From a virus, in IMG/VR virus record IMGVR_UViG_3300005827_000051, positions 1 through 32,903 of that record: a stretch of DNA of 32,903 nucleotides. One strand, given 5' to 3'. How positions within the stretch are numbered: the first letter of the stretch is position 1; every line of letters begins with the position of its first letter. A program made the position numbers and the translations under genes. Positions 4,917 to 30,355 of the stretch are shown here, piece after piece. The notes beneath the pieces are model-generated. The model searched no databases and had not been told where the DNA came from. It worked only from the letters and a program-made list of their open reading frames with translations.

Positions 4917-4938
4917 TAATAAATTATTATTTAATATG

Positions 4939-4968
4939 CTCCCCAAGGTATTATCTTTGGGGAGTTTA
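4939..4968 (+). terminator. Rho-independent terminator-like hairpin after the capsid gene
   Basis: A 10-bp stem, ctccccaagg (4939-4948) / cctttggggag region (4955-4964, one G-U pair), a 6-nt loop, then TTT. The U-tract is short. Confidence 0.55.
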
Positions 4969-4981
4969 AAAGGATTTTAAA

Positions 4982-5308
4982 ATGGCTACTTTAGACGCTA
5001 TTACAGTTTGCAATGGTAATATGTTAACTGGTACGGTTAATGCCGGTTCTGCTAAAGAATTAGCACCAGTTAGCCCAGAAACAATTTTATTGAAAAATGC
5101 AGCTGGAGATACTTCTTTATATTGCAGATTTTCAGCTACTGGAATACTTTTGGCTTCTTTAGATATTGGAACTGCAGCCGCCGGAACTTTTGTAGTGATG
5201 CCAAACGAGAGTGTTAATGTATATACTAAAGATGTCAATGCGATAGAGCTATCAAACCCAGGAGCATCTACGGTGACTTATTTTATTGTTCCTCTAGATT
5301 GTGATTGA
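4982..5308 (+). CDS. Small virion-module protein, paralog A (possible head decoration protein)
   Basis: 108 aa. Clearly aligned with the next ORF (A..VCN.N.L...P.SP...L...AG....Y.RFS.TG...G.F..MPNES..VYT.....L.N.....Y..PLD.D). Confidence 0.7.
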   Translation: MATLDAITVCNGNMLTGTVNAGSAKELAPVSPETILLKNAAGDTSLYCRFSATGILLASLDIGTAAAGTFVVMPNESVNVYTKDVNAIELSNPGASTVTYFIVPLDCD

Positions 5309-5314
5309 GTATAT

Positions 5315-5665
5315 ATGGCATACTTAAATGCGGCGTCAGTTTGTAATTCAAATATTCTATTTGTTGAATTTATTCATGATGATGATCCAGAATTTAATAT
5401 ATTGCCAGCATCTCCAGACCAAAGCGTTTTAATCAGCGCAGCTGGAACAATTCCTGCTTATTCTCGCTTTTCGTCAACTGGTTTGTGTGATATTACATTG
5501 TGTGATTATAGGGATGGCGGAGGGGATTGGCATGATGCAGGGAATTTCATATTAATGCCAAATGAAAGTTTAGTTGTATACACATTAAATATTAAGGCAT
5601 TAAAATTATTTAATACAAACAATATAGATATGAAAGTTTATATTTCTCCATTGGATACAGATTAA
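5315..5665 (+). CDS. Small virion-module protein, paralog B
   Basis: 116 aa tandem paralog of 4982..5308 (shared motifs VCN, RFSxTG, MPNES.VVYT, PLDxD). Confidence 0.7.
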   Translation: MAYLNAASVCNSNILFVEFIHDDDPEFNILPASPDQSVLISAAGTIPAYSRFSSTGLCDITLCDYRDGGGDWHDAGNFILMPNESLVVYTLNIKALKLFNTNNIDMKVYISPLDTD

Positions 5666-5958
5666 TGTCTTCTCTAGAAACAAAAATACATGGCCTTGCT
5701 GATGGAGGTATTGTTTTTGAGAGCACTCAAGATTGTAATCCTGTTATAGAAGATATATTAGAATTAAGAGAAGATAAATCAAATTATTCCGGCAAGGATA
5801 TGCATCACGTAGCTAGAATTCCTTTTGTTATTATTGAACAGTATCTCAATAACAATAATATTCAATACGAAGAATTTATGCGTGATAAAACACATATAAA
5901 AAATATACTTAATGACCCAGCGCTATCGGCATTTAGAATTTGGCAAGGAAGAGTATGA
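5665..5958 (+). CDS. Hypothetical virion-module protein (97 aa)
   Basis: Start overlaps the stop of the previous ORF, and there is an ATGA overlap with the next gene. No family recognised. Confidence 0.6.
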   Translation: MSSLETKIHGLADGGIVFESTQDCNPVIEDILELREDKSNYSGKDMHHVARIPFVIIEQYLNNNNIQYEEFMRDKTHIKNILNDPALSAFRIWQGRV

Positions 5959-6587
5959 GCATATCGAATTATCCAGAGTTGAAATCGGCTATATCTAACT
6001 GGTTAGCCAGAGGGGATCTGGATAATATTGTCAGCGATCTTGTCACGCTAGCTGAGGCGCGGATAAACAATGATGTTCGTACCAGGCAAATGGAAGCGAT
6101 CGTCACTATTGATCCGGTTTCTTTGTCCCCCATAGAAAGCGCGTTAGAAATCCCTGATAATTTTATGGAGCTAAAGCAAATCATTGTCACCAGCAATGAT
6201 ATGGAATGCTTGTTGAAATATATCGACGAGTCAAGTGCTGCGCTGTATTTGAATAATACGAGTGTTCCTATCTTTTTTTCCAGAAGAGGAGACTATTTTC
6301 TATTAGTTCCGAATCCAGATTCGGCAGAATATACATATTCTTTGTATTACTATGCCAGAATACCCGCTTTATCGGATAATAATGTCACTAACTGGTTGTT
6401 AACTAACAACCCTAATATTTATCTTTATGCTAGCTTGTTAGAAGCCTCCCCATATTTAAAGGATGATGCTCGTATTGATGTATGGCTAACGGCTTACATC
6501 AATGCTGTGGAAAAATTAAACGCAGCAGATCTAAATAGTAAATACCCTTCTTCTGATCTCAGAATACGAGGGGATGTGATATTTTGA
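5955..6587 (+). CDS. Head-tail adaptor-like protein (putative)
   Basis: ATG 5955 overlaps the upstream TGA (ATGA). The N-terminus MSISNYPELKSAISNWLARGDLDNIVSDLVTLAEARINNDVR matches a pattern I recall from adaptor or head-completion proteins of BPP-1/F116-like podoviruses. Call is from memory only. Confidence 0.55.
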   Translation: MSISNYPELKSAISNWLARGDLDNIVSDLVTLAEARINNDVRTRQMEAIVTIDPVSLSPIESALEIPDNFMELKQIIVTSNDMECLLKYIDESSAALYLNNTSVPIFFSRRGDYFLLVPNPDSAEYTYSLYYYARIPALSDNNVTNWLLTNNPNIYLYASLLEASPYLKDDARIDVWLTAYINAVEKLNAADLNSKYPSSDLRIRGDVIF

Positions 6588-8020
6588 TACCCTTGATCGG
6601 ATTTGCTCCAGATATGGATCCTATGACCCCTGGCGTCCTAACGGATTGTCACAATATCATTCCTACTCTTAACGGATTTAAATCTGGACCTTCTCTATCG
6701 ACAGTTGGGATTCCTTCGTTGTCATTCCCCTGTATTGGCGCCTCTCTTGTCGTGCAACTAGATAATGAGAGAAGGATATTCGCTGGCACTAGCACGAGAA
6801 TATACGAGCTGACTGGAACGACATGGACGAATAGGTCGAAGAGTGGTGGCTATACTCCAGGAGCCGAAAATAGATGGCGGTTTTGCCAGTTTGGCAATGT
6901 GACGATCGCCACAAATCAAACCGACAAGATACAATTCTTACAGGCCGGGGGTGGGGCGTTTGCGGATATCGCCGACGCGCCTATTGCCAAGATCGTCTTA
7001 GTTGCCAGTGGATTTGTCATGGCGTTTTCGATTGGTTCGGATACGCAAAGCTGGGCGTGTTCTGGCCTGTATAACTATAACACGTGGACGCCGAGTCAAG
7101 CGACGCAAGCGGCAACAGGACAAATTGTTGATTCCCCCGGTGACATTAGAGCAGCAAAAGCGTTAGGCAATAGCGTGGTCGTCTACAAAGAACGATCTAT
7201 GTACCTTGGAACCTATGTCGGCCCTCCTGTTATATGGCAATGGGAACAAATATCCTCTGATATAGGAGCAGTCGGACCGGAGGCCGTGGTTAATATTGGA
7301 ACAGAGCATATTTTTATTGGCTCTGATGATTTCTGGGTGTTTGATGGTTCTCGGCCGGTTGCTTTTAATCAGCCTATTAAAAACTGGTTTTTTAGTAATA
7401 GCAGTCGGTTATATAGATCAAGAGCAAATGGTTATTATGATAGATTTAATAATCTAATCTATTTTTATTATTGCTCAGTAGATTCTGGAGGCGATTTAGA
7501 TTCGTGCATTGTTTACAACACAAAAACTAAGTTATGGGGTCGATCTGATAGAAAGATACAAGCACCGTTAGAGTTCACGACGATAGGGATGATTTATGAT
7601 GAATTGGGAGATGTCTATAATGAGTATGATGATATCCCTAATTTCGCTTATGATAGTGATAGATGGTATTTTGGTGGATATACGGCAGCGATATTTGACG
7701 ATCAAAACCAATTAATGTTTTTGGATGGGATAGGTTCTGATTCTTATATAGAGACATGGGATATCGGAGATGATAGCCAATATTCTACGCTATTGGAAGT
7801 TCGCCCTAGATTCACCATATACCCTGCAACAGCCTATATGCAGCAACTGTACAAAAACAATTCTGGTTCCGAATTATTTGGCGGTCCTTTTTCTAATTTG
7901 AACGATGGAAAATTCGATACGAGATGGTCGTCCAGATGGCATAAGACTAGGATGTATTTCTCAGGTGATGTCGAGCTGAGTGCGATTAAATTCACGATTT
8001 CTCCTGACGGGAAAAGATAA
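6584..8020 (+). CDS. Virion structural protein (putative tail-tube/nozzle, beta-rich)
   Basis: 478 aa with a TTG start overlapping the upstream stop (TTGA) and GAGGGGA upstream. The N-terminal pattern GFAPDMDPMTPGVLTDCHNIIP is recalled from podovirus structural proteins. W/Y/G-rich, beta-propeller-like composition. Confidence 0.55.
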   Translation: MIPLIGFAPDMDPMTPGVLTDCHNIIPTLNGFKSGPSLSTVGIPSLSFPCIGASLVVQLDNERRIFAGTSTRIYELTGTTWTNRSKSGGYTPGAENRWRFCQFGNVTIATNQTDKIQFLQAGGGAFADIADAPIAKIVLVASGFVMAFSIGSDTQSWACSGLYNYNTWTPSQATQAATGQIVDSPGDIRAAKALGNSVVVYKERSMYLGTYVGPPVIWQWEQISSDIGAVGPEAVVNIGTEHIFIGSDDFWVFDGSRPVAFNQPIKNWFFSNSSRLYRSRANGYYDRFNNLIYFYYCSVDSGGDLDSCIVYNTKTKLWGRSDRKIQAPLEFTTIGMIYDELGDVYNEYDDIPNFAYDSDRWYFGGYTAAIFDDQNQLMFLDGIGSDSYIETWDIGDDSQYSTLLEVRPRFTIYPATAYMQQLYKNNSGSELFGGPFSNLNDGKFDTRWSSRWHKTRMYFSGDVELSAIKFTISPDGKR

Positions 8021-19394: not shown

Positions 19395-19470
19395 GGTTGA
19401 GAAACCCCATTGTGTTTTGTGTTAATATAGCGAGACTTTGCTCATCATCCCCCAAAAATCCCCCACAAAC

Positions 19471-20448
19471 ATGGCTTCATTTAAAAAATCAACTTCAGGA
19501 TGGCGTGCTCAGATTGAGCGGCTGGGCATCAGGAAATCAAAAACCTTTCCAACTAAGGCTGCTGCTCAAGCATGGGCCACTAAAGAAGAGGCGGCTATTC
19601 TTGCTGGAGCGCGAGGGGAAATCCCACATCACTCTCTACGCGAAGCACTGGATCGATACGCACGAGAAGTCTCTCCATCAAAACGCGGGGTAAGGTGGGA
19701 GATTATTAGGCTCGCTTCTTTTGCTAGAACGATGCCATTTGCCGACCAGTGGCTGCACCGAATAACGCCAAATGATATTGGACAATGGCGCGATTTAAGA
19801 CTCGTTGTCGTTAAGCGTTCCAGCGTTAGGCGTGATTTTAACCTGCTTAAAGCTGTTTTTAATCGGGCGATTAAAGAATGGCGTTGGCTAGAATCAAGTC
19901 CAATGAGAGATGTTGCCATGCCGGATGATGAAAAGCCAAGAACTCGTCGCATACACTGGCGAGAGGTATTGGCTATTTGCCGTGCTTTAGGCTACAAAGA
20001 TGGGGAGGTTGAGACGAAGTCTCAGGAAGTGGCTCTGGCTTTCCTGCTTTCCCTTAGAACCGCCATGAGGGCTGGCGAGATACTAAGCTTGTCTGACACT
20101 ACGGTTGACCTGGAAAGGCGCGTAGCTATGCTATGCGACACCAAGAATGGTGATGATCGCACCGTTCCGCTAACGAAGCGTGCAGCACGGCTACTGCGAT
20201 CGGTATCGGGAAGAGGCAAATTATTTTCAGTTAACAATGCCACTCGCGACGCTTTATTTCGCAGAGCTTGCCGAAAGGCAGGTGTGCTAGACCTGCACTT
20301 TCATGACGCAAGAGCTGAAGCATTAACCAGGCTTTCTCGTCGAGTTGATGTGATGACGTTAGCACGCATTAGTGGACATCGTGACTTGAAGATTTTGATG
20401 CAGACTTACTACCGCGAGACCGCGGAACAGATTGCCGCTCGCCTCTGA
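19471..20448 (+). CDS. int: Tyrosine integrase
   Basis: 325 aa from ATG 19471; the listed ORF starts 33 nt earlier at a non-ATG codon. Catalytic-domain motifs are LRTAMRAGEIL (Arg), HFHDARAEALTRL (H-x-x-R) and GHRDLKILMQTYY (His...Tyr). Confidence 0.9.
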   Translation: MASFKKSTSGWRAQIERLGIRKSKTFPTKAAAQAWATKEEAAILAGARGEIPHHSLREALDRYAREVSPSKRGVRWEIIRLASFARTMPFADQWLHRITPNDIGQWRDLRLVVVKRSSVRRDFNLLKAVFNRAIKEWRWLESSPMRDVAMPDDEKPRTRRIHWREVLAICRALGYKDGEVETKSQEVALAFLLSLRTAMRAGEILSLSDTTVDLERRVAMLCDTKNGDDRTVPLTKRAARLLRSVSGRGKLFSVNNATRDALFRRACRKAGVLDLHFHDARAEALTRLSRRVDVMTLARISGHRDLKILMQTYYRETAEQIAARL

Positions 20449-21126: not shown

Positions 21127-21444
21127 TTATTTACCTATCAGAAACTCTTCCTTGCTACGTCCATTAGCGATAAGCTCTTTCATCCATTTTGGCATTAGCC
21201 CGCGGCCAGACCATGTTAGCTGGTGGTTCTCTGGATGTCGGTACTTGGGCAATACCTGTTCGGCAGCTTTTTTAAATAGCTTTTCCAGGTTGATATCAAA
21301 CTCTGCAGCAAGAGCAATGATTCTTTTTCTAGCGTCTTTTCGTAGGGTTTTCCTCAATCCCTCAATTTCGTCCTCTATCTCATTTTTCTTCATGATAAGC
21401 TCAGCTAATTCCATCGGAAAAATATCGCTGTTAGTGGGTTGCAT
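21127..21444 (-). CDS. H-NS family DNA-binding protein
   Basis: Probable ATG 21444 (AAAGG 8 nt upstream); the listed GTG 21459 is an alternative. N-terminal coiled coil. The C-terminal KYRHPENHQLTWSGRGLMPKWMKELIANGRSKEEFLI carries the H-NS DNA-binding signature (TW(S/T)G(R/Q)GR.P.W ... (D/E)FLI). Confidence 0.8.
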   Translation of the reverse strand: MQPTNSDIFPMELAELIMKKNEIEDEIEGLRKTLRKDARKRIIALAAEFDINLEKLFKKAAEQVLPKYRHPENHQLTWSGRGLMPKWMKELIANGRSKEEFLIGK

Positions 21445-21470
21445 TAAGTTACCTTTCACAGGGTGATGGT

Positions 21471-21653: not shown

Positions 21654-21968
21654 TTAGCAATAGGTTTCTAGCATTTTGGCGAAGTACCCCGACAGTTTAT
21701 CTTCTAAGCTTTCTTCGGCTTCTTTCTCTGACCTATTATCTTCATTGCCAGTTATTAGACTGGTTATAAGCCAATCGTCTGCCAGCAAATCTGTTTGCGA
21801 TGCCAGCCAAGGCACTAATTTCTTATCTGCCGTGTACATGCAGATATATGGCAATTGATCTTCAAGAAGCGGGGTGAGCAAAAAGATATACATATCCTTA
21901 CCATTCCATCCTTCGCGGGCCAGATGTCTCCCTTTTTTCAAAAATCCAAGTGCTTCACTGAAATTCAT
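21654..21968 (-). CDS. DUF2829 domain protein (Tad2-like candidate)
   Basis: MNFSEALGFLKKGRHLAREGWNGKDMYIFL...PYICMYTADKKLVPWLASQTDLLADDWLI matches the DUF2829 pattern as I recall it (M.F.EAL..LK.G....R.GWNGK.M.......PWL.SQ.D.LA.DW). It also has a ~35-aa acidic C-terminal extension. Confidence 0.75.
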   Translation of the reverse strand: MNFSEALGFLKKGRHLAREGWNGKDMYIFLLTPLLEDQLPYICMYTADKKLVPWLASQTDLLADDWLITSLITGNEDNRSEKEAEESLEDKLSGYFAKMLETYC

Positions 21969-21995: not shown

Positions 21996-22826
21996 TTATT
22001 TTATTCTAACGCTAAAGTAGTCAATGCCTTTTTCTCTAAAAGGCTCTAAATCAACATTAGGCAAATAGCCCTCTTTTACTTTTTTCCAGTTTATATTTCC
22101 TGATCGATGTAGCTTATTTACAATAACTTTGCTCCCTTGAGAGTATTTTCCTTGAACAAGTGATGTTAACGTCTCTTTTGCCCTATCTGCCTTTTCTTGT
22201 GCTAGTTTTAACAGATCAATTGCTTTGATATAGTCTCCCTCGGCCTTTGCCCATTCTTTATCGGTTCTTTCTCCAATAGTCGGCCAAAATTCATCCCAGG
22301 CTAATTTAATCTTATCCCAGCTTGTTTTGTCAGGGAAAACATCAACAGCTAGTCCATTGCAAGCCTCAGCATCCCACACCCATAATGTCGCTTTGTCTGC
22401 GCCAGTGACCATTAACTGATGTTGAATTTGCATAAAATCATCTGGCCTTACGGTGTCTACTAAAGCAATCCTCCACCGCTCACTATCTTTGCCTTTAAAT
22501 GGGACTTTCACTTCTAAGATTCTTTTATTATCTAGGCTAATTCCATCGAGACTGCAGCTGTACGTGCCATCGCTAAACACCGCCTGGCGCATAAGCTCAA
22601 ATTCATCTTCAAAAGCAGCTCTAGCTTCTTGTTCTTTATCACAGCCTTTTTGCATCGCGATATTAATAACTTGCTGTTGACCAAGCTTTGCTTTTCTCAC
22701 ATCGTTAACAGTCATGTAAGGCGATAGCTTCATAATGGCGGGTGTTTCTGATGCGTTTCTCAGCTCTTGCCTAGCTAGCAGCCATTTATCAGACCCTTGC
22801 TCTAGCATTAATTCTTTAGCTGTCAT
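21996..22826 (-). CDS. YqaJ-type (lambda Exo-like) recombination exonuclease
   Basis: EQGSDKWLLARQELRNASETPAIM, then SLDGIS...ILEVKVP (a PD-(D/E)XK D...E.K motif). It is coupled to the upstream Erf gene by a 4-nt overlap. There is a ~100-aa C-terminal extension. Confidence 0.85.
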   Translation of the reverse strand: MTAKELMLEQGSDKWLLARQELRNASETPAIMKLSPYMTVNDVRKAKLGQQQVINIAMQKGCDKEQEARAAFEDEFELMRQAVFSDGTYSCSLDGISLDNKRILEVKVPFKGKDSERWRIALVDTVRPDDFMQIQHQLMVTGADKATLWVWDAEACNGLAVDVFPDKTSWDKIKLAWDEFWPTIGERTDKEWAKAEGDYIKAIDLLKLAQEKADRAKETLTSLVQGKYSQGSKVIVNKLHRSGNINWKKVKEGYLPNVDLEPFREKGIDYFSVRIK

Positions 22827-23446
22827 GCCGCCACCTCTTCAAGAGTTGGCGCCGTCTTTTTCTTTTCTAAAGACCTGACTATCCTTTGGTATTCAGATTG
22901 CGGTATTTTACCTAGCGAATCTGTCTTATAGTGATTTAATAAATTATCTACGCTAGAGTTTGTTTCTTGAATTAGAGCTTTAATATTTTCTATCTCATTA
23001 TTAGTAAGCATTTTCACAGACACTTCGTGCGTTATTTGGTCTGCGTCGTTGTCACCCTCTGTTGGAATGGCGAACGCTTGAATGATGGCGTACTTATAAG
23101 CGGCTGACATTGCCTTGTTGGTGGCTTTATCTGCTGAGTCCATCGCCTCACCATAGGTACGAACGGTATGTTTTGAACCATCCTCGCTGCTCACAAAGTC
23201 AAACTCTGCCTCTACAGTCACATAGAACAGCCCGTGGCCTGATTTAGTTTGCCTCTCGCAGCTTTCCCTGGATAGCATTCTCGGAAGAATGCATAGCCCA
23301 TACTGGCCAAGCAAAGGTGATATAGCGTTATAAACATCGTCTATCCCTCTGAACTGATAGCCTTGCTGTGCATTCTTTCTATCCTTTGCAATCCCTGTTT
23401 TTGCTATCTGCGTCTGAATTTCGTTAATGGCTTTGTAAACTTTCAT
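22823..23446 (-). CDS. erf: Erf-family single-strand annealing protein
   Basis: ATG 23446 (GAGGA 7 nt upstream, TAATG coupling to the upstream ORF). QGYQFRGIDDVYNAISPLL...GEAMDSADKATNKAMSAAYKYAIIQAFAIPTEG is the ERF-family signature. Confidence 0.85.
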   Translation of the reverse strand: MKVYKAINEIQTQIAKTGIAKDRKNAQQGYQFRGIDDVYNAISPLLGQYGLCILPRMLSRESCERQTKSGHGLFYVTVEAEFDFVSSEDGSKHTVRTYGEAMDSADKATNKAMSAAYKYAIIQAFAIPTEGDNDADQITHEVSVKMLTNNEIENIKALIQETNSSVDNLLNHYKTDSLGKIPQSEYQRIVRSLEKKKTAPTLEEVAA

Positions 23447-23694
23447 TATTTTGTCCTCGAGATTTTTTCTGGTGTGATACAAACAATATCGTTGCCAGCT
23501 AAAATAAGCTCATAACTACCATCTCTCTTGTTGCGGCAATTTCTTCTGGTTTTAGCCAGCTCTTCGTCATAATCCATTGATCCGACAACACCAAGACAGC
23601 AGATTATGAATAAGGCAGCTACCACTGGTTTTAACCAAGCATGTCTCTTTAATGAGACATGCTTTCTCTGACGGTTTGTTATGAGGATGTTCAT
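23446..23694 (-). CDS. Small membrane-anchored protein (82 aa)
   Basis: Basic N-terminus followed by the hydrophobic segment WLKPVVAALFIICCLGVVG. No family recognised. Confidence 0.5.
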   Translation of the reverse strand: MNILITNRQRKHVSLKRHAWLKPVVAALFIICCLGVVGSMDYDEELAKTRRNCRNKRDGSYELILAGNDIVCITPEKISRTK

Positions 23695-23695
23695 A

Positions 23696-24052
23696 TTAAT
23701 TGGCCTGTATATGTTTTATCGCCAAATTAAGAATGTCGGTGCCTGATAGGTCTGCGCCTGAAAAATCCACATTAGCCATTTTGCACCCATACAAGCGCGC
23801 TCCACGCAAATTTGCGCCACGGAAACAGGCTCCTCTTAAGTCAGATCCTCTTAAATCTGAGCCGCTTAAATCTGCTCCTGAGAAATCAGCTCCCACAAGA
23901 TTAGCCCAAATAATATATTGATTGCTTAAGTTGGCATTTGCTAAACTGACTCCTTTGTTTACTGTTTTCTCTACCGTTTTTACAAGAGAATTAAACTCTT
24001 GTTCATGTTTAAATATGTATTTCTTTGCGATGCTTTTGATGGAAATATTCAT
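23696..24052 (-). CDS. Pentapeptide-repeat protein
   Basis: 118 aa. About 15 consecutive A(D/N)LXX-type pentapeptides (ANLSN..ANLVGADFSGADLSGSDLRGSDLRGACFRGANLRGARLYGCKMANVDFSGADLSGTDI). Confidence 0.9.
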   Translation of the reverse strand: MNISIKSIAKKYIFKHEQEFNSLVKTVEKTVNKGVSLANANLSNQYIIWANLVGADFSGADLSGSDLRGSDLRGACFRGANLRGARLYGCKMANVDFSGADLSGTDILNLAIKHIQAN

Positions 24053-24899: not shown

Positions 24900-24903
24900 T
24901 TGG

Positions 24904-25077
24904 CTACTCCTTAATCGCTGATTGATTGCGCTCTGTTGTTATGCTTTCCTCTAACGTGCGCAGGGTTTGTAACGCTTCGTTGGCTGCCCCGGATAAATCC
25001 ATGACTCCTCTATCAAGGAGCTGGAGAATATAAATAATCTCGCTTCGCGCCAATCCCATCGGTGTTAAGTCGTTCAT
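24904..25077 (-). CDS. Small ORF (57 aa), first gene of the leftward early operon
   Basis: Not in the track. Product is MNDLTPMGLARSEIIYILQLLDRGVMDLSGAANEALQTLRTLEESITTERNQSAIKE. Its stop is 4 nt before the next ATG. It lies about 25 nt downstream of a good promoter. The RBS is weak. Confidence 0.45.
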   Translation of the reverse strand: MNDLTPMGLARSEIIYILQLLDRGVMDLSGAANEALQTLRTLEESITTERNQSAIKE

Positions 25078-25106
25078 GTCGGTGGCCTTGTGGGGAGGGT
25101 TAGGTA

Positions 25107-25135
25107 AATATAAGGCATAGACTGATTTATATCAA
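25107..25135 (-). promoter_or_regulatory. PL-like sigma70 promoter for the leftward early operon
   Basis: The minus strand reads TTGATA - 17 nt - TATATT (-35 at 25135..25130, -10 at 25112..25107). An ~85% AT tract lies upstream (25125-25200). Confidence 0.5.
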
Positions 25136-25456
25136 TAAAAAATTTATTTATTTTTATATTTTTAGCTGTTTTATAGTTATATTATTGATTATATTGCCTT
25201 ATTACCCTGTCTCAAAAACGCACTCCCGCCACATCGTCTGCCATGTGGCAAAACCGCGAATACTTAAGAAAAAATGATTGAGAGAGCGAAGAACATTATT
25301 TGTTTAGAGGAATATAGCTATGGCAAATGTCGCAAACTGGCGGCACGCTGAAATTTTCGGTGAATGCGGATTGATAGGTGCGGGCTATTTACTGGCATGT
25401 ATGAAAGAGTTATGATGATATGCGCTATCTTTCATAATTAGAAAACTTTGCTATAT

Positions 25457-26638
25457 ATGGACCCTAGAACAAACCCTTATGCGCCAGGAGCGGGATCTAT
25501 CCCCCCAGAATTGGCTGGGAGAGAAGAGATTATTGAGAAAGCGGCGATTGCGCTTGATCGATTTAGAAGCGGTTTATCTGCGCGAAGCTTGCTATTAATA
25601 GGCCTTCGCGGCGTAGGTAAGACCGTGCTTCTTACGCGCATATCTCAAGAAACAGAAGCGAGAGGGTTCATTACTGTTTCTATTGAGGCACCTGAAAAAC
25701 GCTCGTTGCCGGCTCTGCTAATACCGTCCTTACGCACCTCATTATTTAAGTTAGATGCAATATCAGCCACGGGAAACTTGGCAAAAAAAGCCATGCAAGT
25801 TCTCGGGGGATTTGTCCAAGCGATGAAAGTAAAGTATGGGGACATCGAGTTTAGTGTCGATCTTGGTAGTGAGCCTGGTGTGGCTGATTCTGGTGACTTA
25901 GAGCATGATTTAATTAACTTATTTTTGGAAGTCGGGAAAGCGGCAAAAGAGAAGAATACGGCAGTGGTTTTTTTTATTGATGAGCTACAGTACGTAGCAG
26001 AAGAGCAATTTGCTTCTCTTATTACAGCGTTACATAGCTGCGCACAGCAGCAGCTTCCTGTTGCGCTTGTTGGGGCTGGTTTGCCTCAATTGGCCGGGAA
26101 AGCGGGCAATGCTAAATCCTATGCCGAGCGTTTGTTCGAATACCCAGAAATTGGTCCATTAACCAAAGAGGCGGCAAGAGGGGCTATTGTTGTTCCAGTA
26201 AGTAAATTAGGGGTGAATTATGAAGATGACGCGATTGAAGAAATTATTCGCAGAACGCATGCGTACCCTTATTTTTTGCAAGAATGGGGGAAGCATAGCT
26301 GGGACCATGCTCGCTATTCGATTATCACTAAAAGCGACGTAGAGATGGCTAGTGAAATAGCTATACATAGCTTAGATGCTAGTTTTTTCCGCGTAAGGTT
26401 TGATCGGCTAACGCCAGGAGAAAAAAAATACTTGCACGCAATGGCAAAGTTGGGACCTGGGCCACATCGTTCTGGAGATATATCCTCATTATTAAAAAAA
26501 GAAGTTCAGAGTGTTGCTCCGACTAGATCATCCTTAATAAAAAAGGGGATGATTTATAGTCCAGCTCACGGAGATAATAGCTTTACCGTTCCTTTGTTTG
26601 ACGAGTATATGAGAAGAGCGATACCAGACGAAAAATAA
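25457..26638 (+). CDS. P-loop NTPase (ORC/Cdc6-like or STAND-type 'archaeal ATPase' fold) with a C-terminal winged-helix-like domain
   Basis: Walker A GLRGVGKT (25601-25624). Walker B-like VVFFIDELQY. N-terminal lead-in NPYAPGAGSIPPELAGREE. C-terminal LTPGEKKYLHAMAKLG..SGDISSLL..SVAPTRSSLIKKGMIYSP..G..FTVPLF. Start is ATG 25457, or TTG 25448 as listed. Confidence 0.8.
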   Translation: MDPRTNPYAPGAGSIPPELAGREEIIEKAAIALDRFRSGLSARSLLLIGLRGVGKTVLLTRISQETEARGFITVSIEAPEKRSLPALLIPSLRTSLFKLDAISATGNLAKKAMQVLGGFVQAMKVKYGDIEFSVDLGSEPGVADSGDLEHDLINLFLEVGKAAKEKNTAVVFFIDELQYVAEEQFASLITALHSCAQQQLPVALVGAGLPQLAGKAGNAKSYAERLFEYPEIGPLTKEAARGAIVVPVSKLGVNYEDDAIEEIIRRTHAYPYFLQEWGKHSWDHARYSIITKSDVEMASEIAIHSLDASFFRVRFDRLTPGEKKYLHAMAKLGPGPHRSGDISSLLKKEVQSVAPTRSSLIKKGMIYSPAHGDNSFTVPLFDEYMRRAIPDEK

Positions 26639-26837
26639 CTTTAGTGCACTTGACATCCTCCCCGCCATGAAGGACTGGGTGTACGGCACACTGGATAAAT
26701 TAAGCGCGGAAAAGTGATGGAAAACGATAGAACACAATACAACACAGGCATTCTTGTTGGTATCGTATACGGCATCGCCAGTTACCATCCCACCTAACGC
26801 TTATCTATGCTATAATTTTGGCTGTCTGGCTGGCTGT

Positions 26838-27140
26838 TTATTTGCACTTGATATATATCTCTCCTTGTATAAGATTTGGATGTCCGGCAATGGGGGTCAC
26901 TGTTTTATCAGGGGGGCTAGCGCCACCCCCAAGAAATTCATAGCCTTTTGTCCCGCAAATTTCGCCAGCCTTTGCATAACAATCTGCGAACGTTAGTAGC
27001 CGCCCTTTGGGGCTGTATCCTGTACATCCAATGTGATAGCCAACAGAGCCGTCTGGCAAATTAATGGGGCGAAGGAAGACTCCACATCCGGCTAAGATGA
27101 TTGGGATTGATGCTATTGCTATTAATTTAACGCGCTTCAC
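26838..27140 (-). CDS. Small Cys-rich lipoprotein downstream of the repressor gene
   Basis: GTG start. The signal peptide MKRVKLIAIASIPIILAG|C has a lipobox. The mature ~82 aa contain 5 Cys. It lies 28 nt downstream of the repressor stop on the same strand. Confidence 0.6.
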   Translation of the reverse strand: MKRVKLIAIASIPIILAGCGVFLRPINLPDGSVGYHIGCTGYSPKGRLLTFADCYAKAGEICGTKGYEFLGGGASPPDKTVTPIAGHPNLIQGEIYIKCK

Positions 27141-27168
27141 TTATCTTTTTTCCATTAAAAGTTTTTGA

Positions 27169-27657
27169 CTAAGCAGATCTAGCGCGACCAGAGGGACCAG
27201 AGGGACCAGAGGGACCAGAGGGACCAGAGGGACCAGAGGGACCAGAGGGACCAGAGGGACCAGAGGGACCAGATTGGTTGGCAAGCATTTGCTCCAGTAG
27301 ATGTTTGTTCTCAAGTTGTTTTTTTCTAACATAAGAAAAAATTTCTTTTGCTTGATATTCTGGTAATCCTCTGATAATGGAATAAATTTCATATAATTTA
27401 TCTGTCATGCTCAGACCTTCGTCTTTTGGATCAGCGCCAAATTTATCCTCATCTATCCCCCAGTGTTCCATATTTACCACATCAGAAAAGTATCTAAAAA
27501 CATCAAACAGGTGTTTCTTGCTTATTTTCCCGTATTTCACCCAGCCGTAAACAGACTGAGGGGCGATATTAAAATGCCTAGCCAAATCAACCTGGCCAAT
27601 CCCCTTCATGGTCATGGCTTCTCTAAGGGCCATCCCAAGCTCACCTCCAGATTTCAT
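27169..27657 (-). CDS. CI-like HTH (XRE-family) repressor with a C-terminal (Gly-Pro-Ser)n tail
   Basis: AGGAG lies 7 nt upstream of ATG 27657. HTH is MKGIGQVDLARHFNIAPQSVYGWVKYG. It is divergent from a Cro-like gene. It has no S24 peptidase-like C-terminal domain and ends ...NQSGPSGPS(GPS)nGRARSA. Confidence 0.8.
   Translation of the reverse strand: MKSGGELGMALREAMTMKGIGQVDLARHFNIAPQSVYGWVKYGKISKKHLFDVFRYFSDVVNMEHWGIDEDKFGADPKDEGLSMTDKLYEIYSIIRGLPEYQAKEIFSYVRKKQLENKHLLEQMLANQSGPSGPSGPSGPSGPSGPSGPSGPSGPSGRARSA
27185..27274. repeat. Perfect 9-bp tandem repeat (ggaccagag x8, plus one 1-mismatch unit at each end)
   Basis: Counted directly: cgaccagag (27185-27193), eight exact ggaccagag units (27194-27265), ggaccagat (27266-27274). 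It encodes Ser-Gly-Pro repeats on the minus strand. Confidence 0.97.
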
Positions 27658-27718
27658 GGCCAGCTCCTTTCTTAATGTTACTATTTTTCCTGATTACATG
27701 TTTAAAATTGATGCACAC

Positions 27719-27747
27719 ATAATAACAATAATATGAATATCAGTCAA
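27719..27747 (-). promoter_or_regulatory. Near-consensus sigma70 promoter for the repressor operon
   Basis: The minus strand reads TTGACT - 17 nt - TATTAT (-35 at 27747..27742, -10 at 27724..27719), about 60 nt upstream of ATG 27657. Confidence 0.55.
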
Positions 27748-27819
27748 TGGCTGACATATCTATATAGGCTTAGTACGGAACAAACTAATATTATAAAATA
27801 TAAGCCATCGCCTGTTTTA

Positions 27820-27828
27820 TGGTATAGT
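27820..27828 (+). promoter_or_regulatory. Possible extended -10 (TGgTATAGT) of a PR-like promoter
   Basis: TG at 27820-27821 and TATAGT at 27823-27828, about 37 nt upstream of the Cro-like ATG. There is no good -35. Confidence 0.3.
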
Positions 27829-27864
27829 TTTGATTGTGAGTTTACATGCGGCTGAGGTTTTTCG

Positions 27865-28161
27865 ATGAGAGATCGTGCAATGCTTCTTATCTCAATATTT
27901 GGCAACCAAAGAAGATTGGCCATTGCTTTGGGCGTGAGTTCTCAGACTGTAAATGATTGGGTTTTAGGAAAGCGGAGAGTGCCCCCATCGAAAGCCGTTG
28001 CAATCGAACGTCTCACCAACGGCCTGGTTGTCCGAGAAGAGTTAGTCAGTAACTGGGAAGACTTTTGGCCTGAGCTGGTTGCACTCAACCGTCTAGCTCA
28101 GAAAGAACGTGAGCCTACCCATCATGTTCCACCGATCGACACATTGCCATCACGTGTCTAA
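27865..28161 (+). CDS. Cro / YdaS-like HTH regulator
   Basis: GAGG lies 7 nt upstream. IFGNQRRLAIALGVSSQTVNDWVLGKRRVPPSKAVAIERLTNGLVVREEL matches the YdaS/Cro-type pattern. It is divergent from the repressor. Confidence 0.75.
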   Translation: MRDRAMLLISIFGNQRRLAIALGVSSQTVNDWVLGKRRVPPSKAVAIERLTNGLVVREELVSNWEDFWPELVALNRLAQKEREPTHHVPPIDTLPSRV

Positions 28162-28731: not shown

Positions 28732-29715
28732 ATGACTAACCAACTCACCCCGCCAGATTGTCGTTTGACCGATTTCCCGTATATGCCGGTAGATATACGA
28801 CGATTGCTCAACTCGGATACATGGCTGCTTGCAAACGACTCAGAGAGGTCGGCGGCCATGTGCTTATGGCTGGAAAGCTGGCATCAAGTGCCAGCTGCCA
28901 GCATTCCCAATAACGATAAGGTGCTAGCTGCTTTATCAAAGGCTGCCAACAAGTGGTCAAAGGTAAAAGATCAAGCATTACGCGGTTGGGTAGATGGTGG
29001 GGATGGTCGATTGTATCACCCTGTCGTGGCTGAAAAGGCACTTGAATCATTCATTGAAAAGCTACTATCCGGTCTATCAGGAACCAAGGGCAACGAGAAG
29101 AGGTGGGGAGTGAAGATAGATACTAGCGATCTTATTTCCCAACTTTCTGATGCGGTGTCTCGCCTAAAAGCGCTGTCCCCAAATTCAAAATATTTAACCA
29201 ACAGAGTACTAAAATATATTGACCATCGGAATCGCCCCCCGATCGCCACCCCACTCCAATCGGAATCCCATTCGGTCGCAATAGACAATGACAATATACT
29301 CTCTACAGAGACTACGTCTCTTCCGAGAGTGGTGCGCGCGACAGACGAGTCGCCCCCCGATTTTGACGAACCTACCCCAATCCCTGACGACTTCAAGCCA
29401 GACCGACAGGCGCAGAGCAGCGCTATGTCGATGAAACTGGACATCGAGTTTGAGCGAGAACGGTTCATGGCTCACTACCAGGCTAGGCCAAACGAAAAGC
29501 GCAATGGCATGCAAGCTTGGCAAGCACAGTTTCGAAAGTGGCTTTGCGACCAGAAACAGTACACCGCTGACCGCGAAAAGGTAACAGCGGCAAGAGTTTC
29601 AGCTGCCGATAAAAAGAAATTTAACCCGCTGGATTACCTAGAGGAGCAGCACCGTGGATACCCAGACCGCACCGATAGCGAGCCTATCGACATCACGCCT
29701 CAGTGCATGGCTTGA
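28732..29715 (+). CDS. DUF1376 (YdaU-like) phage replication protein
   Basis: The N-terminus DFPYMPVDIRRLLNSDTWLLANDSERSAAMCLWLESWHQVPAASIPNNDKVLAALS fits the DUF1376 pattern. It occupies the position of an O-like initiator, upstream of the P-like gene. Confidence 0.7.
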   Translation: MTNQLTPPDCRLTDFPYMPVDIRRLLNSDTWLLANDSERSAAMCLWLESWHQVPAASIPNNDKVLAALSKAANKWSKVKDQALRGWVDGGDGRLYHPVVAEKALESFIEKLLSGLSGTKGNEKRWGVKIDTSDLISQLSDAVSRLKALSPNSKYLTNRVLKYIDHRNRPPIATPLQSESHSVAIDNDNILSTETTSLPRVVRATDESPPDFDEPTPIPDDFKPDRQAQSSAMSMKLDIEFERERFMAHYQARPNEKRNGMQAWQAQFRKWLCDQKQYTADREKVTAARVSAADKKKFNPLDYLEEQHRGYPDRTDSEPIDITPQCMA

Positions 29716-29743
29716 CCCTCATCCATCGTTGAATGGGCTGTCG

Positions 29744-30355
29744 ATGATTGACCATCTGTTCAAGCGGTTGCAGGGCCTTTATGCTCACAAATGGATGTCA
29801 GCGTTTCCTGACGCGAAGTCGATTAAAAATTGGCGTGATGTGTGGGCTGAAGCCTTTGTTGACGAAGAGATTACGCTAGCTGAAATCAAGGCTGGGCTGA
29901 CAGCCTGCCTAACCAAGTTCTCGTGGCCGCCAAGTCTTCCTGAGTTCCTGTCGGTTTGCCGACCAGACAGCAAGCCTCAGTCCCCAGAGGTGTTGTTCCA
30001 CCGTGCCGTTCGTGAGATGGAGAAGCGACGAGCGTTCAAGGAGCAGGACTGGCCAAGCCGTGGCGTTTTCTGGGCAGCAGCGGCGCTGGGAGATGACTTG
30101 CTCAACGTTCCCTACAAAGCCCTAGCGGCTAGGTGGGAAGCCTTGCTGATGGAGTTTGACAAGGGTTCGGTAGACATTCCGATGGTCGACAAGTCCAGAG
30201 CATTACCAGCGAAGACAGCGGCTGAGAGTCGAAGCGATGCCAAGGAAAAAATTCGGGTGCTGAAGGATTTGCTGACGAGAAATCCACACCTAACCTCTAG
30301 GAAGGTGGCAAAGATACCGATTGCTGACACGATACGGCACAAAGGAGACATTTAA
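29744..30355 (+). CDS. Lambda P-like replication protein (helicase loader)
   Basis: ATG 29744 (the listed ORF starts at 29654, overlapping the upstream gene). FKRLQGLY..KW...FPD.....WRDVWAEAF.DEEITLAEIKAGL...L.KFSWPPSLPEFLSVCR aligns by eye with lambda P (FSQLLATFP...RRQWVLAF.ENGIT.EQVNAGM...PFLPSPGQFVAWCR). Confidence 0.6.
   Translation: MIDHLFKRLQGLYAHKWMSAFPDAKSIKNWRDVWAEAFVDEEITLAEIKAGLTACLTKFSWPPSLPEFLSVCRPDSKPQSPEVLFHRAVREMEKRRAFKEQDWPSRGVFWAAAALGDDLLNVPYKALAARWEALLMEFDKGSVDIPMVDKSRALPAKTAAESRSDAKEKIRVLKDLLTRNPHLTSRKVAKIPIADTIRHKGDI

Follow-up and report, generated by a model that had tools for sequence, protein, structure and literature searches.

The gene at positions 25,457–26,638 of the window (the whole stretch of 32,903 nucleotides that was analysed) belongs, judged by sequence comparison, to a huge family of ATPases in bacteria and was captured by the phage. 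A conserved palindromic cis-element travels with this family. The original prediction had missed both the family and the element. We favour, with somewhat better than even confidence, the explanation that the gene encodes a captured, self-contained, ATP-dependent DNA-binding switch, which is carried as cargo in the phage immunity region and controls itself at least through its own promoter.

A stand-alone ATPase with a predicted winged helix

The open reading frame encodes 393 amino acids from an ATG, or 396 from an in-frame TTG at 25,448. The ATG at 25,457 was taken as the start, because the N-terminus MDPxxNPYxPGAG is kept from that ATG in 88 homologous loci. The gene contains the following features:

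25,457–26,638, plus strand, stop codon included: coding sequence of a solitary ORC/Cdc6–STAND-like AAA+ ATPase with a predicted C-terminal winged helix (open reading frame, Pfam, AF2)
25,601–25,624, plus strand: Walker A motif GLRGVGKT, residues 49–56 (sequence reading)
25,964–25,993, plus strand: Walker B motif VVFFIDELQY, residues 170–179 (sequence reading)
26,408–26,590, plus strand: winged-helix domain, putatively DNA-binding, approximately residues 318–378 (AF2 secondary structure)

The frame of about 393 amino acids and the Walker A and Walker B-like motifs described originally are intact, and the motifs are conserved. In an alignment of 81 sequences reaching down to 37% identity, G49, G52, G54, K55 and D175 are invariant across the family and E176 is at least 90% conserved. 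GLRGVGKT conforms to the pattern GxxGxGK[ST], and FFIDE at residues 171–176 to the AAA+ Walker B pattern hhhhDE. R225 in AKSYAERLF, also at least 90% conserved, lies at the expected place of box VII (arginine finger) and has a putative role across subunits. Overall, the phage protein retains 169 of the 173 positions that are at least 90% conserved in the family, including all catalytic motifs; among the four altered positions is P289 (99% conserved), which is replaced by I. The winged helix departs from the family consensus at H327 (usually R) and S343 (usually A). An A8 run at 26,421–26,428, which had been pointed out before, is present and encodes the variable stretch GEKKY. The G+C content of the gene is about 0.45, compared with about 0.42 for the rest of the phage, which suggests a long residence under selection. 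Its DNA is only 65–71% identical to the bacterial copies.

The AF2 model (pLDDT 94) shows an alpha-beta-alpha AAA+ base, a helical lid and a C-terminal winged helix, which consists of helices 320–331, 339–346 and 350–362 and a beta-hairpin at 365–376. The model confirms the C-terminal winged helix that had been proposed from the letters, and one relative gave a weak MarR_2 match over the same region. The best Foldseek matches of the model were the DNA-bound archaeal Orc1/Cdc6 structures 2qby_A and 2v1u_A. The Foldseek probability was 1.00 for these two as well as for 1fnn_A, 2qen and 2fna, and the highest TM-scores (0.57–0.67) were obtained with 2qen and 2fna. The Pfam profile AAA_16 (PF13191) was covered over its whole length with 61 bits against a cut-off of 32.6, which assigns the protein to this superfamily. 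Pfam, AF2 and Foldseek all support the fold class first suggested, an ORC/STAND-like P-loop ATPase with a winged helix–turn–helix (wHTH).

Narrower assignments were not obtained. The orc1/cdc6 family profile (TIGR02928) scored 25.4 bits against a cut-off of 181.3, over the N-terminal P-loop region only, and the protein is not a member of that family. The STAND profiles remained under their cut-off of about 27 bits (nSTAND1 19.9, nSTAND6 21.1, NACHT 11.4), and ATPase_2 scored 18 bits against 33. In the model, the 393 amino acids are all taken up by ATPase, lid and wHTH, and neither sensor repeats nor an effector domain are predicted. What we take to be a STAND-like TxGYPYF(L)Q stands in place of the ORC sensor-2 GDAR motif. 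Sequence searches for solved homologs matched nothing beyond the ORC4/Cdc6 P-loop region, and that weakly, a viral fold library returned generic AAA+ matches only, and no functional name was obtained from PADLOC, NCBIfam or PHROGs. Orthology to an IstB/TniB/DnaC-type helper, named originally as a case that would speak against a defence role, was not borne out: the matches to DnaI and Hda were weak (E about 0.005), and neither a transposase nor a helicase recurs as a neighbour of the ATPase gene.

Relatives of the gene are widespread in bacteria

A word-index search retrieved more than 8000 relatives of the ATPase. At 50% identity and E<=1e-30 they form 958 clusters, nearly all with proteins of 385–405 amino acids. 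Identities of 59–79% connect the phage protein to Beta-, Gamma- and Alphaproteobacteria, Bdellovibrionota, CPR, Planctomycetota, Acidobacteriota, Chloroflexota and others. The family is also present on 119 plasmids and is seldom seen in phages. A megablast search of 50,697 phage records with the region gave no match, and tblastn gave a single one, 38% identical, on an unannotated 5.9-kb contig. Complete E. coli genomes contain no DNA-level relative of the gene, and our literature search found no paper on the family.

No recurrent partner gene was found beside the ATPase gene among 88 loci. The flanks are tight, with medians of 120 bp upstream and 42 bp downstream, and the 112 immediate neighbours fall into 106 Pfam families, mostly metabolic or housekeeping. 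The position is syntenic within lineages; lipA and an ABC transporter flank the gene in the Thiobacillus lineage, and an oligopeptidase and exonuclease III do so in Methylophilaceae. On Pandoraea pPO70-3 and Clavibacter pCI3 it adjoins parA/parB. DNA homology between family loci ends at the stop codon, and these loci carry no conserved downstream element or terminal repeat of the kind expected of a transposon-like unit. Distant relatives showed no informative domain fusions, only an apparent LeuA_dimer gene-call merger and unannotated N-terminal extensions.

A phased palindrome adjoins the start codon of family genes

A palindrome of ~60–66 bp with helically phased half-sites lies beside the start codon of family genes and is overlapped by promoter-like hexamers. 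Its consensus is TATA-N6-GTTAY-N5-GTTAY-[A/T-rich]-RTAAC-N5-RTAAC-N6-TATAT-ATG, with the dyad centre at −30. All four TTA/TAA half-sites were matched in 68 of 88 loci, compared with 1 of 88 shuffles. Across the dyad, 70.7% of cells pair, compared with 36–45% when the partners are slid; the element is imperfect, as ~30% of cells are unpaired. Covariation between the arms scored 0.221 against 0.151 after shuffling, a difference that is confounded by shared ancestry and possibly reflects one or two events. The same limit applies to a link between half-site spacing and residue 353 in the recognition helix, where Leu353 accompanies a 9-bp spacing in 15 of 15 loci and other residues a 10-bp spacing in 44 of 48.

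The palindrome recurs in relatives that are 33–38% identical, and 28 of 47 distant loci exceeded the 95th percentile of random windows. Plasmid copies of 33–53% identity also have long start-adjacent palindromes, the sequence of which is lineage-specific. Hexamers resembling a −10 element are found at −47 in 18 of 37 fixed-register loci, and TTGACA-like hexamers at −70/−71 in 8 of them. In A/T-rich hosts, the layout is one of inverted boxes around an A/T-rich centre, similar to an ORB-DUE-ORB arrangement. In GC-rich relatives, the centre measures 4–5 nt and an A/T-rich unwinding region is absent. A search of IMG/VR with the array pattern returned five unrelated palindromes, none with the ATPase gene.

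We rejected an identity with integron attC sites; the element lies upstream of the gene and is inherited with it, the loci lie outside cassette arrays, and a comparison by eye showed that GTTAY does not fit GTTRRRY. The palindrome may instead work as a hairpin in RNA or DNA, or have some role other than that of an operator. An RNA hairpin seems less probable, since the left arm contains the best promoter-like hexamers and would then go untranscribed.

The phage copy occupies an immunity-region slot and has lost most of the palindrome

The surroundings of the phage gene contain the following features:

25,107–25,215, minus strand: two PL-like promoters, 25,215 to 25,188 (11/12 matches to consensus) and 25,135 to 25,107, with operator-like repeats (promoter scan)
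25,224–25,253, minus strand: terminator-like hairpin and T-run between the ATPase promoter region and PL (terminator scan)
25,388–25,416, plus strand: sigma-70-like promoter of the ATPase gene, TTTACT-17-TATGAT (promoter scan)
25,398–25,456, no strand assigned: palindrome remnant, eroded or remodelled (alignment to family loci)
26,838–27,657, minus strand: repressor operon with the repressor gene (27,169–27,657) and a small lipoprotein gene (26,838–27,140) (open reading frames, profiles)

As had been stated, the ATPase gene is alone on the plus strand and antiparallel to both neighbours (24,904–25,077 and 26,838–27,140, minus strand). In this temperate, integrating lambdoid phage, it lies between the PL/OL-like elements and the repressor gene, which is the position of lambdoid immunity-region cargo. 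The operator-like repeats D3, D11 and I2 pair 25,106–25,194 with 27,719–27,823 (PR/PRM region), and the repressor coordinates make the distance of ~2.5 kb originally given between PL and the repressor start roughly right. The repressor (phrog_8, HTH_28) has a C-terminal (GPS)n tail encoded by a 9-bp tandem repeat and lacks an S24 autocleavage domain; the lipoprotein belongs to phrog_5685. Elsewhere in the window we found genes for a portal, an integrase, ERF/YqaJ recombination proteins, an SSB and a DUF1376 plus lambda-P type replication pair, in agreement, as regards replication and recombination, with the earlier statement that recognisable core genes are present elsewhere in the genome. The ATPase is presumably dispensable for core phage functions.

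The proposal of a lambdoid cargo position is strengthened by two further prophages, L090 and L089, in which an ATPase ~60% identical to that of the phage occupies the same slot. Both share the order early-left operon, ATPase (plus strand), repressor (minus strand) and replication genes, and L090 reads SSB ... ATPase ... HTH+S24 repressor ... DUF1376.

In the phage copy, the canonical palindrome is largely lost, and the proposed cis-target is weakest at this very locus. The outer arms are retained (TATGAAAGAGTTAT ... AAACTTTGCTATAT) and the inner half-sites are replaced. A 9-bp dyad is left, formed by TATGAAAGA (25,400–25,408) and TCTTTCATA (25,428–25,436). The half-site score of 10/12 falls inside the range of shuffled controls, and the hairpin z-score of the upstream region is −0.54, compared with −2.2 to −8.9 at homologous loci. 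As elsewhere in the family, the −10 hexamer of the promoter overlaps a GTTAT half-site. The window contains no second copy of the family half-site array, and no known RNA families were detected in 24,900–27,900. The terminator-like site at 25,224–25,253 is a pattern match only, as such sites are no more frequent in the region than in shuffles. A 31-aa frame at 25,320–25,415, listed originally as a possible upstream gene, exists mechanically and is probably spurious; it overlies the ATPase promoter-like site and the left arm of the family element, and the upstream DNA is non-homologous between loci.

A proposed mechanism and its alternatives

In the explanation we favour, the protein would be a functional AAA+ ATPase of the ORC/Cdc6–STAND branch that stands alone, built from base, lid and winged helix and free of effector or sensor domains. 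The cassette would comprise its own promoter, the ~60–66 bp palindrome with two to three phased half-sites per arm at the start codon, and the coding sequence, and may move between chromosomes, plasmids and occasionally prophages. Several subunits would bind the phased half-sites cooperatively and sequence-specifically through the winged helix in an ATP-dependent manner, perhaps in a mode similar to that of Orc1 on ORB elements or STAND regulators on box arrays, and would thereby control at least the gene's own promoter. The phage copy would be host-type cargo, transcribed from its own sigma-70-like promoter outside the core phage modules. We infer from the anatomy of the locus and from comparative data that the protein oligomerises, binds the palindrome and regulates itself; it would also be expressed in lysogens and may cause a phenotype in the host. 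The erosion of most of the family palindrome in the phage suggests that this copy was uncoupled from self-control or re-specified.

The original prediction had suggested a defence or abortive-infection module, with an unusual lysis–lysogeny regulator as the alternative. In the former, a single-gene anti-phage, anti-plasmid or superinfection-exclusion system expressed from the prophage, the ATPase would sense or bind invading DNA, for example at origin-like repeats, and block replication or trigger growth arrest. We regard this as possible but doubtful. The cargo slot is occupied in three prophages, the gene runs against the phage operons and has a promoter-like site of its own, and horizontal spread has taken the family into chromosomes, plasmids and phages. 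ATPases of the ORC/Cdc6 clade and of the STAND type are often found in conflict systems (PMC10853773), and a few homologs neighbour McrBC, a type I methyltransferase, Fic or mad2/3/8-like proteins. However, PADLOC gave no significant match; the best in PADLOC-DB v2, mad8 (E=1.4e-7), was partial and covered only residues 45–217 in the P-loop region, and all others had E-values of at least 0.005, in keeping with the earlier remark that the ATPase was not recognised as any named defence family. No clustering with defence genes was seen in a small sample limited to flanking genes, where few of the 112 immediate neighbours matched a defence model and no such model matched more than 2 of them. These neighbours are overwhelmingly housekeeping (106 Pfam families), and the gene is syntenic within bacterial families. 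The protein lacks an effector domain and informative fusions, its sequence is strongly conserved across phyla (59–79% identity) rather than diversified, and among sequenced phages the gene is seldom met (one distant match in 50,697 records). The defence reading is left without positive evidence.

Self-regulation alone is insufficient to explain the strong conservation of the protein. A broader reading, which we hold only tentatively, is that the family constitutes an undescribed self-contained unit, a solitary ORC-like ATPase that spreads across bacterial phyla with its multi-site palindrome and recognises and acts on DNA of a particular architecture, either as a new effector-less mode of replicon interference or immunity or as a selfish origin-like element. 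Temperate phages would repeatedly take this unit into the immunity region and re-wire its control.

A role as a lysis–lysogeny or induction regulator, in which an Orc1-like sensor relays DNA damage or another signal to phage promoters, appears unlikely. As the repressor, an HTH with a (GPS)n tail, lacks the S24 domain, some other induction input is needed, and the gene has the OL region on one side and the OR region on the other. Its remodelled upstream element and the altered wHTH residues H327 and S343 would also suit a phage-specific regulator, and precedents exist in SNJ2 Orf8 (PMC10123103) and Sulfolobus Orc1-2 (PMC9738581). On the other hand, most family members reside outside prophages in housekeeping contexts, which indicates that the function of the family is not phage regulation. 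In L090, the ATPase is found beside a normal HTH+S24 repressor; in the window, the family half-site array does not recur elsewhere, and an Orf7-like partner was not identified.

We consider it very unlikely that the protein is an ORC-like initiator or maintenance factor that, with the palindrome as its origin or centromere, forms a mini-replicon, selfish origin or plasmid maintenance unit, of which the phage copy would be a remnant or auxiliary. The top solved structures are Orc1/Cdc6 bound to origin DNA, the inverted phased repeats around an A/T-rich centre resemble ORB-DUE-ORB, parA/parB adjoin the gene on Pandoraea pPO70-3 and Clavibacter pCI3, and the cassette is solitary and mobile. Against this, the protein scores 25 bits where orc1/cdc6 demands 181, the chromosomal copies sit between housekeeping genes, and the 4–5 nt centres of GC-rich relatives offer no A/T-rich region for unwinding. 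The phage itself encodes an integrase and a replication pair of its own (DUF1376 and lambda-P type), and the copy in the window lacks the palindrome. We know of no helicase partner for the family. Least credible is a passenger without a current phage role, picked up by illegitimate recombination and slowly decaying, with the loss of the control element as the first step: the eroded hallmark palindrome, the four altered conserved positions (including 99%-conserved P289 to I) and the mere 65–71% DNA identity to bacterial copies agree with it, but the frame is intact and full-length with 169 of 173 conserved positions and all catalytic motifs, a promoter-like site is retained, the G+C content (about 0.45) is near that of the phage (about 0.42), and the gene has been retained at the same position in independent prophages.

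Significance and comparison with known systems

To our knowledge, bacterial ORC/Cdc6-type proteins have no well-defined role outside multi-gene conflict systems and transposon helpers. A single-gene family with the ORC fold that spans hundreds to thousands of lineages and is accompanied by a conserved, co-varying cis-element is a concrete candidate for a protein–DNA pair. Knowing what this pair does would give a function to a large group of proteins that at present carry only the label 'ATP-binding protein' and would show why temperate phages and plasmids acquire the gene. Annotators should list the phage gene under captured accessory cargo and assign it neither a core function nor a named defence system.

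The immunity-region cargo genes rexAB and sieB of lambdoid phages occupy the interval from PL/OL to the repressor gene, and rexAB shares its transcript with cI. The ATPase gene has this position too and is presumably likewise dispensable for core phage functions. It has no sequence or fold relationship to these genes and, unlike rexAB, runs opposite to the repressor gene from a promoter-like site of its own.

Archaeal Orc1/Cdc6 proteins (2qby, 2v1u, 1fnn) have the same base, lid and winged helix as the model (Foldseek E 4e-11 to 1e-9). They also share a box-VII-like ...ER(L/F) stretch with the ATPase family, and in both cases the gene adjoins inverted repeat arrays. In contrast to Orc1/Cdc6, with which sequence identity is ~15%, the ATPase family is bacterial, solitary and horizontally spread, and the phage carrying it has its own replication genes. 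PAB2304 (2qen) and SSO1545 (2fna), of the PF01637 type, are likewise stand-alone proteins of ~350–400 amino acids with a C-terminal wHTH-like domain, but belong to a different sequence family; we know of no description of a conserved palindrome for them.

Two ORC-fold AAA+ proteins with wHTH domains act as sequence-specific regulators and not as initiators. Orc1-2 of Sulfolobus is a damage-linked transcription regulator (PMC9738581), and Orf8 of the temperate haloarchaeal virus SNJ2 is encoded in the lysogeny-control region of that virus (PMC10123103). Both are archaeal and have no detectable specific sequence relationship to the phage ATPase. SNJ2 Orf8 acts within the three-gene module Orf4/7/8, whereas the phage ATPase is solitary and its relatives are mostly non-viral. 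Compared with MalT-type STAND factors, the phage ATPase has no sensor repeats, effector or LuxR-type HTH and comprises only 393 amino acids, but its proposed action may resemble that of MalT-type factors and of nSTAND1 and nSTAND6, in which an oligomerising NTPase is combined with DNA binding at box arrays.

The ATPase gene and its place in the phage genome

The ATPase gene was read together with its promoter-like sites and neighbouring genes.

Features of the ATPase region and selected genes elsewhere in the window
19438–20448: tyrosine integrase, elsewhere in the window
21127–21459, minus: H-NS C-terminal-domain protein, leftward early operon
21654–21968, minus: Tad2-like (Thoeris anti-defence 2) gene, leftward early operon
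21996–22826, minus: YqaJ-type exonuclease, left of the ATPase
22823–23482, minus: ERF annealing protein, left of the ATPase
23696–24052, minus: pentapeptide-repeat protein, left of the ATPase, leftward early operon
25135→25107 and 25215→25188, minus: strong leftward promoter-like sites (promoter scan)
25388–25416, plus: promoter-like site TTTACT-17-TATGAT (promoter scan)
25457–26638, plus: ATPase, uninterrupted ORF of 393 codons with ATG start; Walker A GLRGVGKT at residues 49–56, Walker B VVFFIDELQY at residues 170–179
26838–27140, minus: small lipoprotein (phrog_5685, function unknown), right of the ATPase
27169–27657, minus: HTH repressor with (GPS)n tail, right of the ATPase
27865–28161, plus: Cro/YdaS-like protein, right of the ATPase
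28732–29715, plus: DUF1376 replication protein, right of the ATPase
29654–30355, plus: lambda-P-like loader, right of the ATPase

The original prediction of an ORF of about 393 amino acids with Walker A and B-like motifs was borne out: G49, G52, G54, K55 and D175 never vary, and E176 hardly does, among 81 aligned sequences reaching down to 37% identity. The start at 25457 is secure, since the N-terminal motif MDPxxNPYxPGAG..PPELAGR is conserved from that ATG across 88 homologous loci. The gene does stand alone on the plus strand, flanked on both sides by minus-strand genes, and the A8 run noted within it is real (26421–26428), falling in a variable stretch. A possible 31-aa ORF at 25320–25415 exists as a reading frame but found no support as a gene, overlapping both the ATPase promoter-like site and the conserved upstream element.

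Operator-like repeats are common to 25106–25194 (PL-like) and 27719–27823 (PR/PRM-like), for example AAATATAAGGCATAGACTGATTTAT matched by AAATATAAGCCATCGCCTGTTTTAT, or a 22-nt inverted pair; they probably serve the phage repressor as OL and OR. Together with the leftward promoter-like sites and the gene content, these repeats bear out the siting originally proposed: the ATPase lies in an integrating lambdoid phage, with PL/OL on one side and the repressor operon on the other. An SSB and an SU10-type portal are encoded elsewhere in the window, and the remaining minus-strand genes to the left of the ATPase are small unknown proteins. The Tad2-like, H-NS-like and pentapeptide-repeat genes look like candidate counter-defence or host-takeover cargo. 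The ATPase gene bears no G+C island signature (about 0.45 versus about 0.42).

About ten tandem perfect 9-bp units (AGAGGGACC) at 27181–27279 lie inside the repressor gene, encoding a collagen-like (GPS)n at the C-terminus; the repeat length could be variable, and a (VPL)n ORF at 27141–27392 results when the other frame is read. An S24 peptidase domain is absent from the repressor. Co-transcription with the repressor is probable for the lipoprotein gene, which lies directly downstream on the same strand, placed like a classical lysogen-expressed exclusion gene. Just upstream of PL, the minus strand has a terminator-like hairpin with a T-run (25224–25253), which could end transcripts that leave the repressor operon and run antisense through the ATPase gene; the interval from the lipoprotein gene to the ATPase stop codon gave no terminator-like match.

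Distribution and neighbourhoods of the ATPase family

A word-index search returned more than 8000 relatives, the best 120 clusters being all 74–79% identical and 392–396 aa long, save one 435-aa entry. Among 1.84 billion cluster representatives, searched exhaustively, 7403 matched at E ≤ 0.001 and 958 had E ≤ 1e-30, almost always end-to-end and with a length of 385–405 aa; the rare longer relatives have N-terminal extensions that bear no annotation or, with LeuA_dimer, probably stem from merged gene calls. In one-genome-per-species data, relatives 59–79% identical to the phage ATPase occur in Gallionella, Sideroxydans, Methylophilaceae, Thiobacillus, Bdellovibrionota, Elusimicrobia, Deltaproteobacteria, several CPR lineages, Kuenenia and other Planctomycetota, Rickettsiales, Coxiella, Alphaproteobacteria, Acidobacteriaceae, Chloroflexota, Gemmatimonadota, Spirochaetes and Flavobacteriales. 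Identity is out of step with taxonomy, Bdellovibrionota and CPR copies being closer to the phage protein than Alpha- and Gammaproteobacterial ones, a pattern that suggests horizontal transfer combined with strong purifying selection. Plasmids carry the family too, in 119 records (Rhodococcus, Arthrobacter, Clavibacter, Sphingobium and Legionella among them), as do 49 IMG/VR contigs, many near provirus ends, while 50,697 sequenced phage records held a single relative, 38% identical. Database labels read only 'ATP-binding protein' or 'AAA family ATPase'.

No neighbour gene recurs across the 88 loci. The 112 immediate neighbours represent 106 Pfam families, among them DXP synthase, PheS, release factor, DNA polymerase A, 2-oxoacid dehydrogenase and ABC transporters, with defence-type matches only scattered. 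The flanking gaps have medians of 120 bp (upstream) and 42 bp (downstream), and nothing is conserved after the stop codon. On plasmids, the homologues sit amid accessory and maintenance genes, twice adjoining parA/parB, which hints at a link with plasmid maintenance regions. Chromosomal placements were read from complete or long assemblies; their flanking pairs are lineage-specific, so that the gene is syntenic within bacterial families and placed differently between them.

Placements of ATPase homologues
Thiobacillus lineage: between lipA and an ABC transporter
Methylophilus sp. 5: between aceF and a radical-SAM gene
Other Methylophilaceae: between oligopeptidase A and exonuclease III
Pandoraea plasmid pPO70-3 (L101), 4385–7176: adjoining, and divergent from, a parA/parB-like pair
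Clavibacter plasmid pCI3 (L108), 1–2582: just downstream of a parA/parB-like pair

A palindrome beside the start codon

Upstream of the start codon, 37 loci share in fixed register from the ATG the consensus TATA..aAAgTTAttaTaAGTTAtt.tTTTTt.aTAAccTata.TAAc.Tt..TATAT-ATG, a palindrome with its dyad centre at -30, each arm consisting of two TTA half-sites plus TATA at about 10-bp spacing. This is a new observation, and a literature search found no paper on the family or its palindrome. Perfect matches at all four half-sites occur in 68 of 88 loci and in just 1 of 88 shuffled controls. In a 43-sequence alignment, 70.7% of dyad cells are paired, compared with 36–45% when partners are slid; the covariation score of 0.221 (0.151 in shuffles) was reached by none of 500 shuffles. 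With some 30% of cells unpaired, the element is an imperfect dyad, not a strict stem.

Relatives of 33–53% identity again carry long start-adjacent palindromes, with half-sites differing by lineage (TTATA in Legionella, TATAG in Pandoraea, GAGAC in Clavibacter, TCTAC in Tomitella) and arms of 28 nt in a Paenarthrobacter relative; among 47 distant loci, 28 lie above the 95th percentile set by random windows. Single-strand folding z-scores of family palindromes range from -2.2 to -8.9. Half-site spacing tracks the predicted recognition-helix residue 353: Leu353 accompanies 9 bp at 15/15 loci and other residues 10 bp at 44/48 (Fisher p = 3e-11, a figure that ignores shared ancestry), which looks like protein–operator co-evolution. 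The subfamily with Leu-Gly or Leu-Ala at 353–354 and 9-bp spacing includes L054, L058, L059, L062, L063, L066, L067, L074 and L081, among others.

On the simplest reading, the palindrome would be an operator for several subunits of the gene's own product; if protein specificity drifts, its arms are expected to change together. It may instead act as a hairpin or cruciform. Hexamers resembling a -10 element overlap it at -47 in 18 of 37 loci, TTGACA-like hexamers lie at -70/-71 in 8 of 37, and proteobacterial copies have no Shine-Dalgarno sequence.

The canonical palindrome is missing from the planctomycete copies, which are about 65% identical (L037, L038, L039, L045 (Kuenenia) and L034), and likewise from the phage copies of this window, of L089 and of L091, which indicates that it was lost or replaced several times. 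A different palindrome (GAGTTACTCACTGTTATTT...TAACAGTGAGTAACT), probably the operator of an unrelated phage regulator, is common to three IMG/VR contigs (L103, 1750–1788; L104, 10013–10051; L107, 9880–9918) and has no ATPase homologue nearby.

Departure of the phage copy from the family

The phage protein keeps 169 of 173 positions that are at least 90% conserved in the family, the exceptions being V248, I289 (P in 99%) and two winged-helix positions, H327 (usually R) and S343 (usually A). Its gene retains the TATATATG start context. In its palindrome the outer arms are kept and the inner sites replaced, leaving a 9-bp dyad (TATGAAAGA / TCTTTCATA); the half-site score of 10/12 lies inside the shuffled range and the hairpin z-score is -0.54. 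DNA identity to bacterial copies is 65–71%, confined to the CDS and at most 59 nt upstream, so capture by the phage was not recent. Two further prophages carry an ATPase of about 60% identity in the same immunity-region slot, and L090 retains the canonical palindrome.

Gene order in the two prophages
L090: SSB ... ATPase (plus) ... HTH+S24 repressor (minus) ... DUF1376
L089: AAA_24 ... ATPase (plus) ... MASE1 ... rightward genes

A putative DNA-binding switch

On balance we lean towards a model in which the ATPase would be an oligomerising switch that binds specific DNA sequences in an ATP-dependent manner and controls at least its own promoter. The phage would have captured the gene as accessory cargo, driven by its own promoter and partly uncoupled from ancestral control. 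This leaning concerns the mechanism; the purpose of the switch is left to the readings that follow. The phage gene alone is moderately interesting cargo; more surprising is the cassette architecture seen throughout the family.

Both a defence module and a lysis–lysogeny regulator had been proposed originally. A defence or exclusion role is possible though rather unlikely: the immunity-region slot, the mobility of the family and the record of its ORC-type clade in conflict systems (PMC10853773) fit, while the housekeeping neighbourhoods of homologues, the extreme sequence conservation and an ATPase without an effector speak against it. PADLOC was negative, which counts against defence too and led us to reject assignment to any of its systems, in keeping with the original view, in which the ATPase was recognised as no named defence family. 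Regulation of induction or lysogeny, which would suit a repressor devoid of an S24 domain and has archaeal-virus precedent (PMC10123103, PMC9738581), is less probable still, the family being mostly non-viral. We consider a role in origin function or maintenance improbable: the ORB-like palindrome layout and adjoining par genes are set against chromosomal contexts, GC-rich relatives whose centres are not A/T-rich, and the replication genes that the phage itself carries. A decaying passenger is the least credible, the ORF being intact and conserved.

Fold and relation to known ATPases

Both sequence and fold place the ATPase in the AAA_16/Orc1-like superfamily. Its Pfam AAA_16 score is 61 bits (cut-off 32.6), and AAA_22, AAA_14 and DUF815 also exceed their cut-offs; nSTAND1, nSTAND6, ATPase_2, ORC-CDC6-like and BrxC_BrxD fall below theirs. 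An AlphaFold2 model built on 81 diverse relatives (pLDDT 94, pTM 0.91) consists of an AAA+ alpha-beta-alpha base, in which two helices are inserted after strand 2, a helical lid and a C-terminal winged helix. Conserved AKSYAERLF we take, from our own alignment reading, to be a putative box VII with a candidate arginine finger, and TxGYPYFLQEWG presumably resembles the STAND 'GxP' motif more than the ORC sensor-2 motif.

Sequence searches against solved structures detected only the P-loop region of ORC4/Cdc6, and at 25 bits versus 181 on the orc1/cdc6 family model a bona fide Orc1/Cdc6 was rejected. A canonical STAND NTPase was also rejected on the nSTAND1 and nSTAND6 scores, and an IstB/TniB/DnaC helper on weak hits to DnaI and Hda (E about 0.005) and the lack of any recurrent transposase or helicase neighbour. 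The top Foldseek PDB matches to the model are DNA-bound archaeal Orc1/Cdc6 (2qby_A, 4e-11; 2v1u_A), along with yeast, fly and human ORC subunits and Cdc6; with the AAA_16 score and the model, they make 'ORC/STAND-like P-loop ATPase-wHTH' a fair description. The best global superposition on the model is given by two archaeal ATPases of unknown function, 2qen and 2fna (TM 0.57–0.67).
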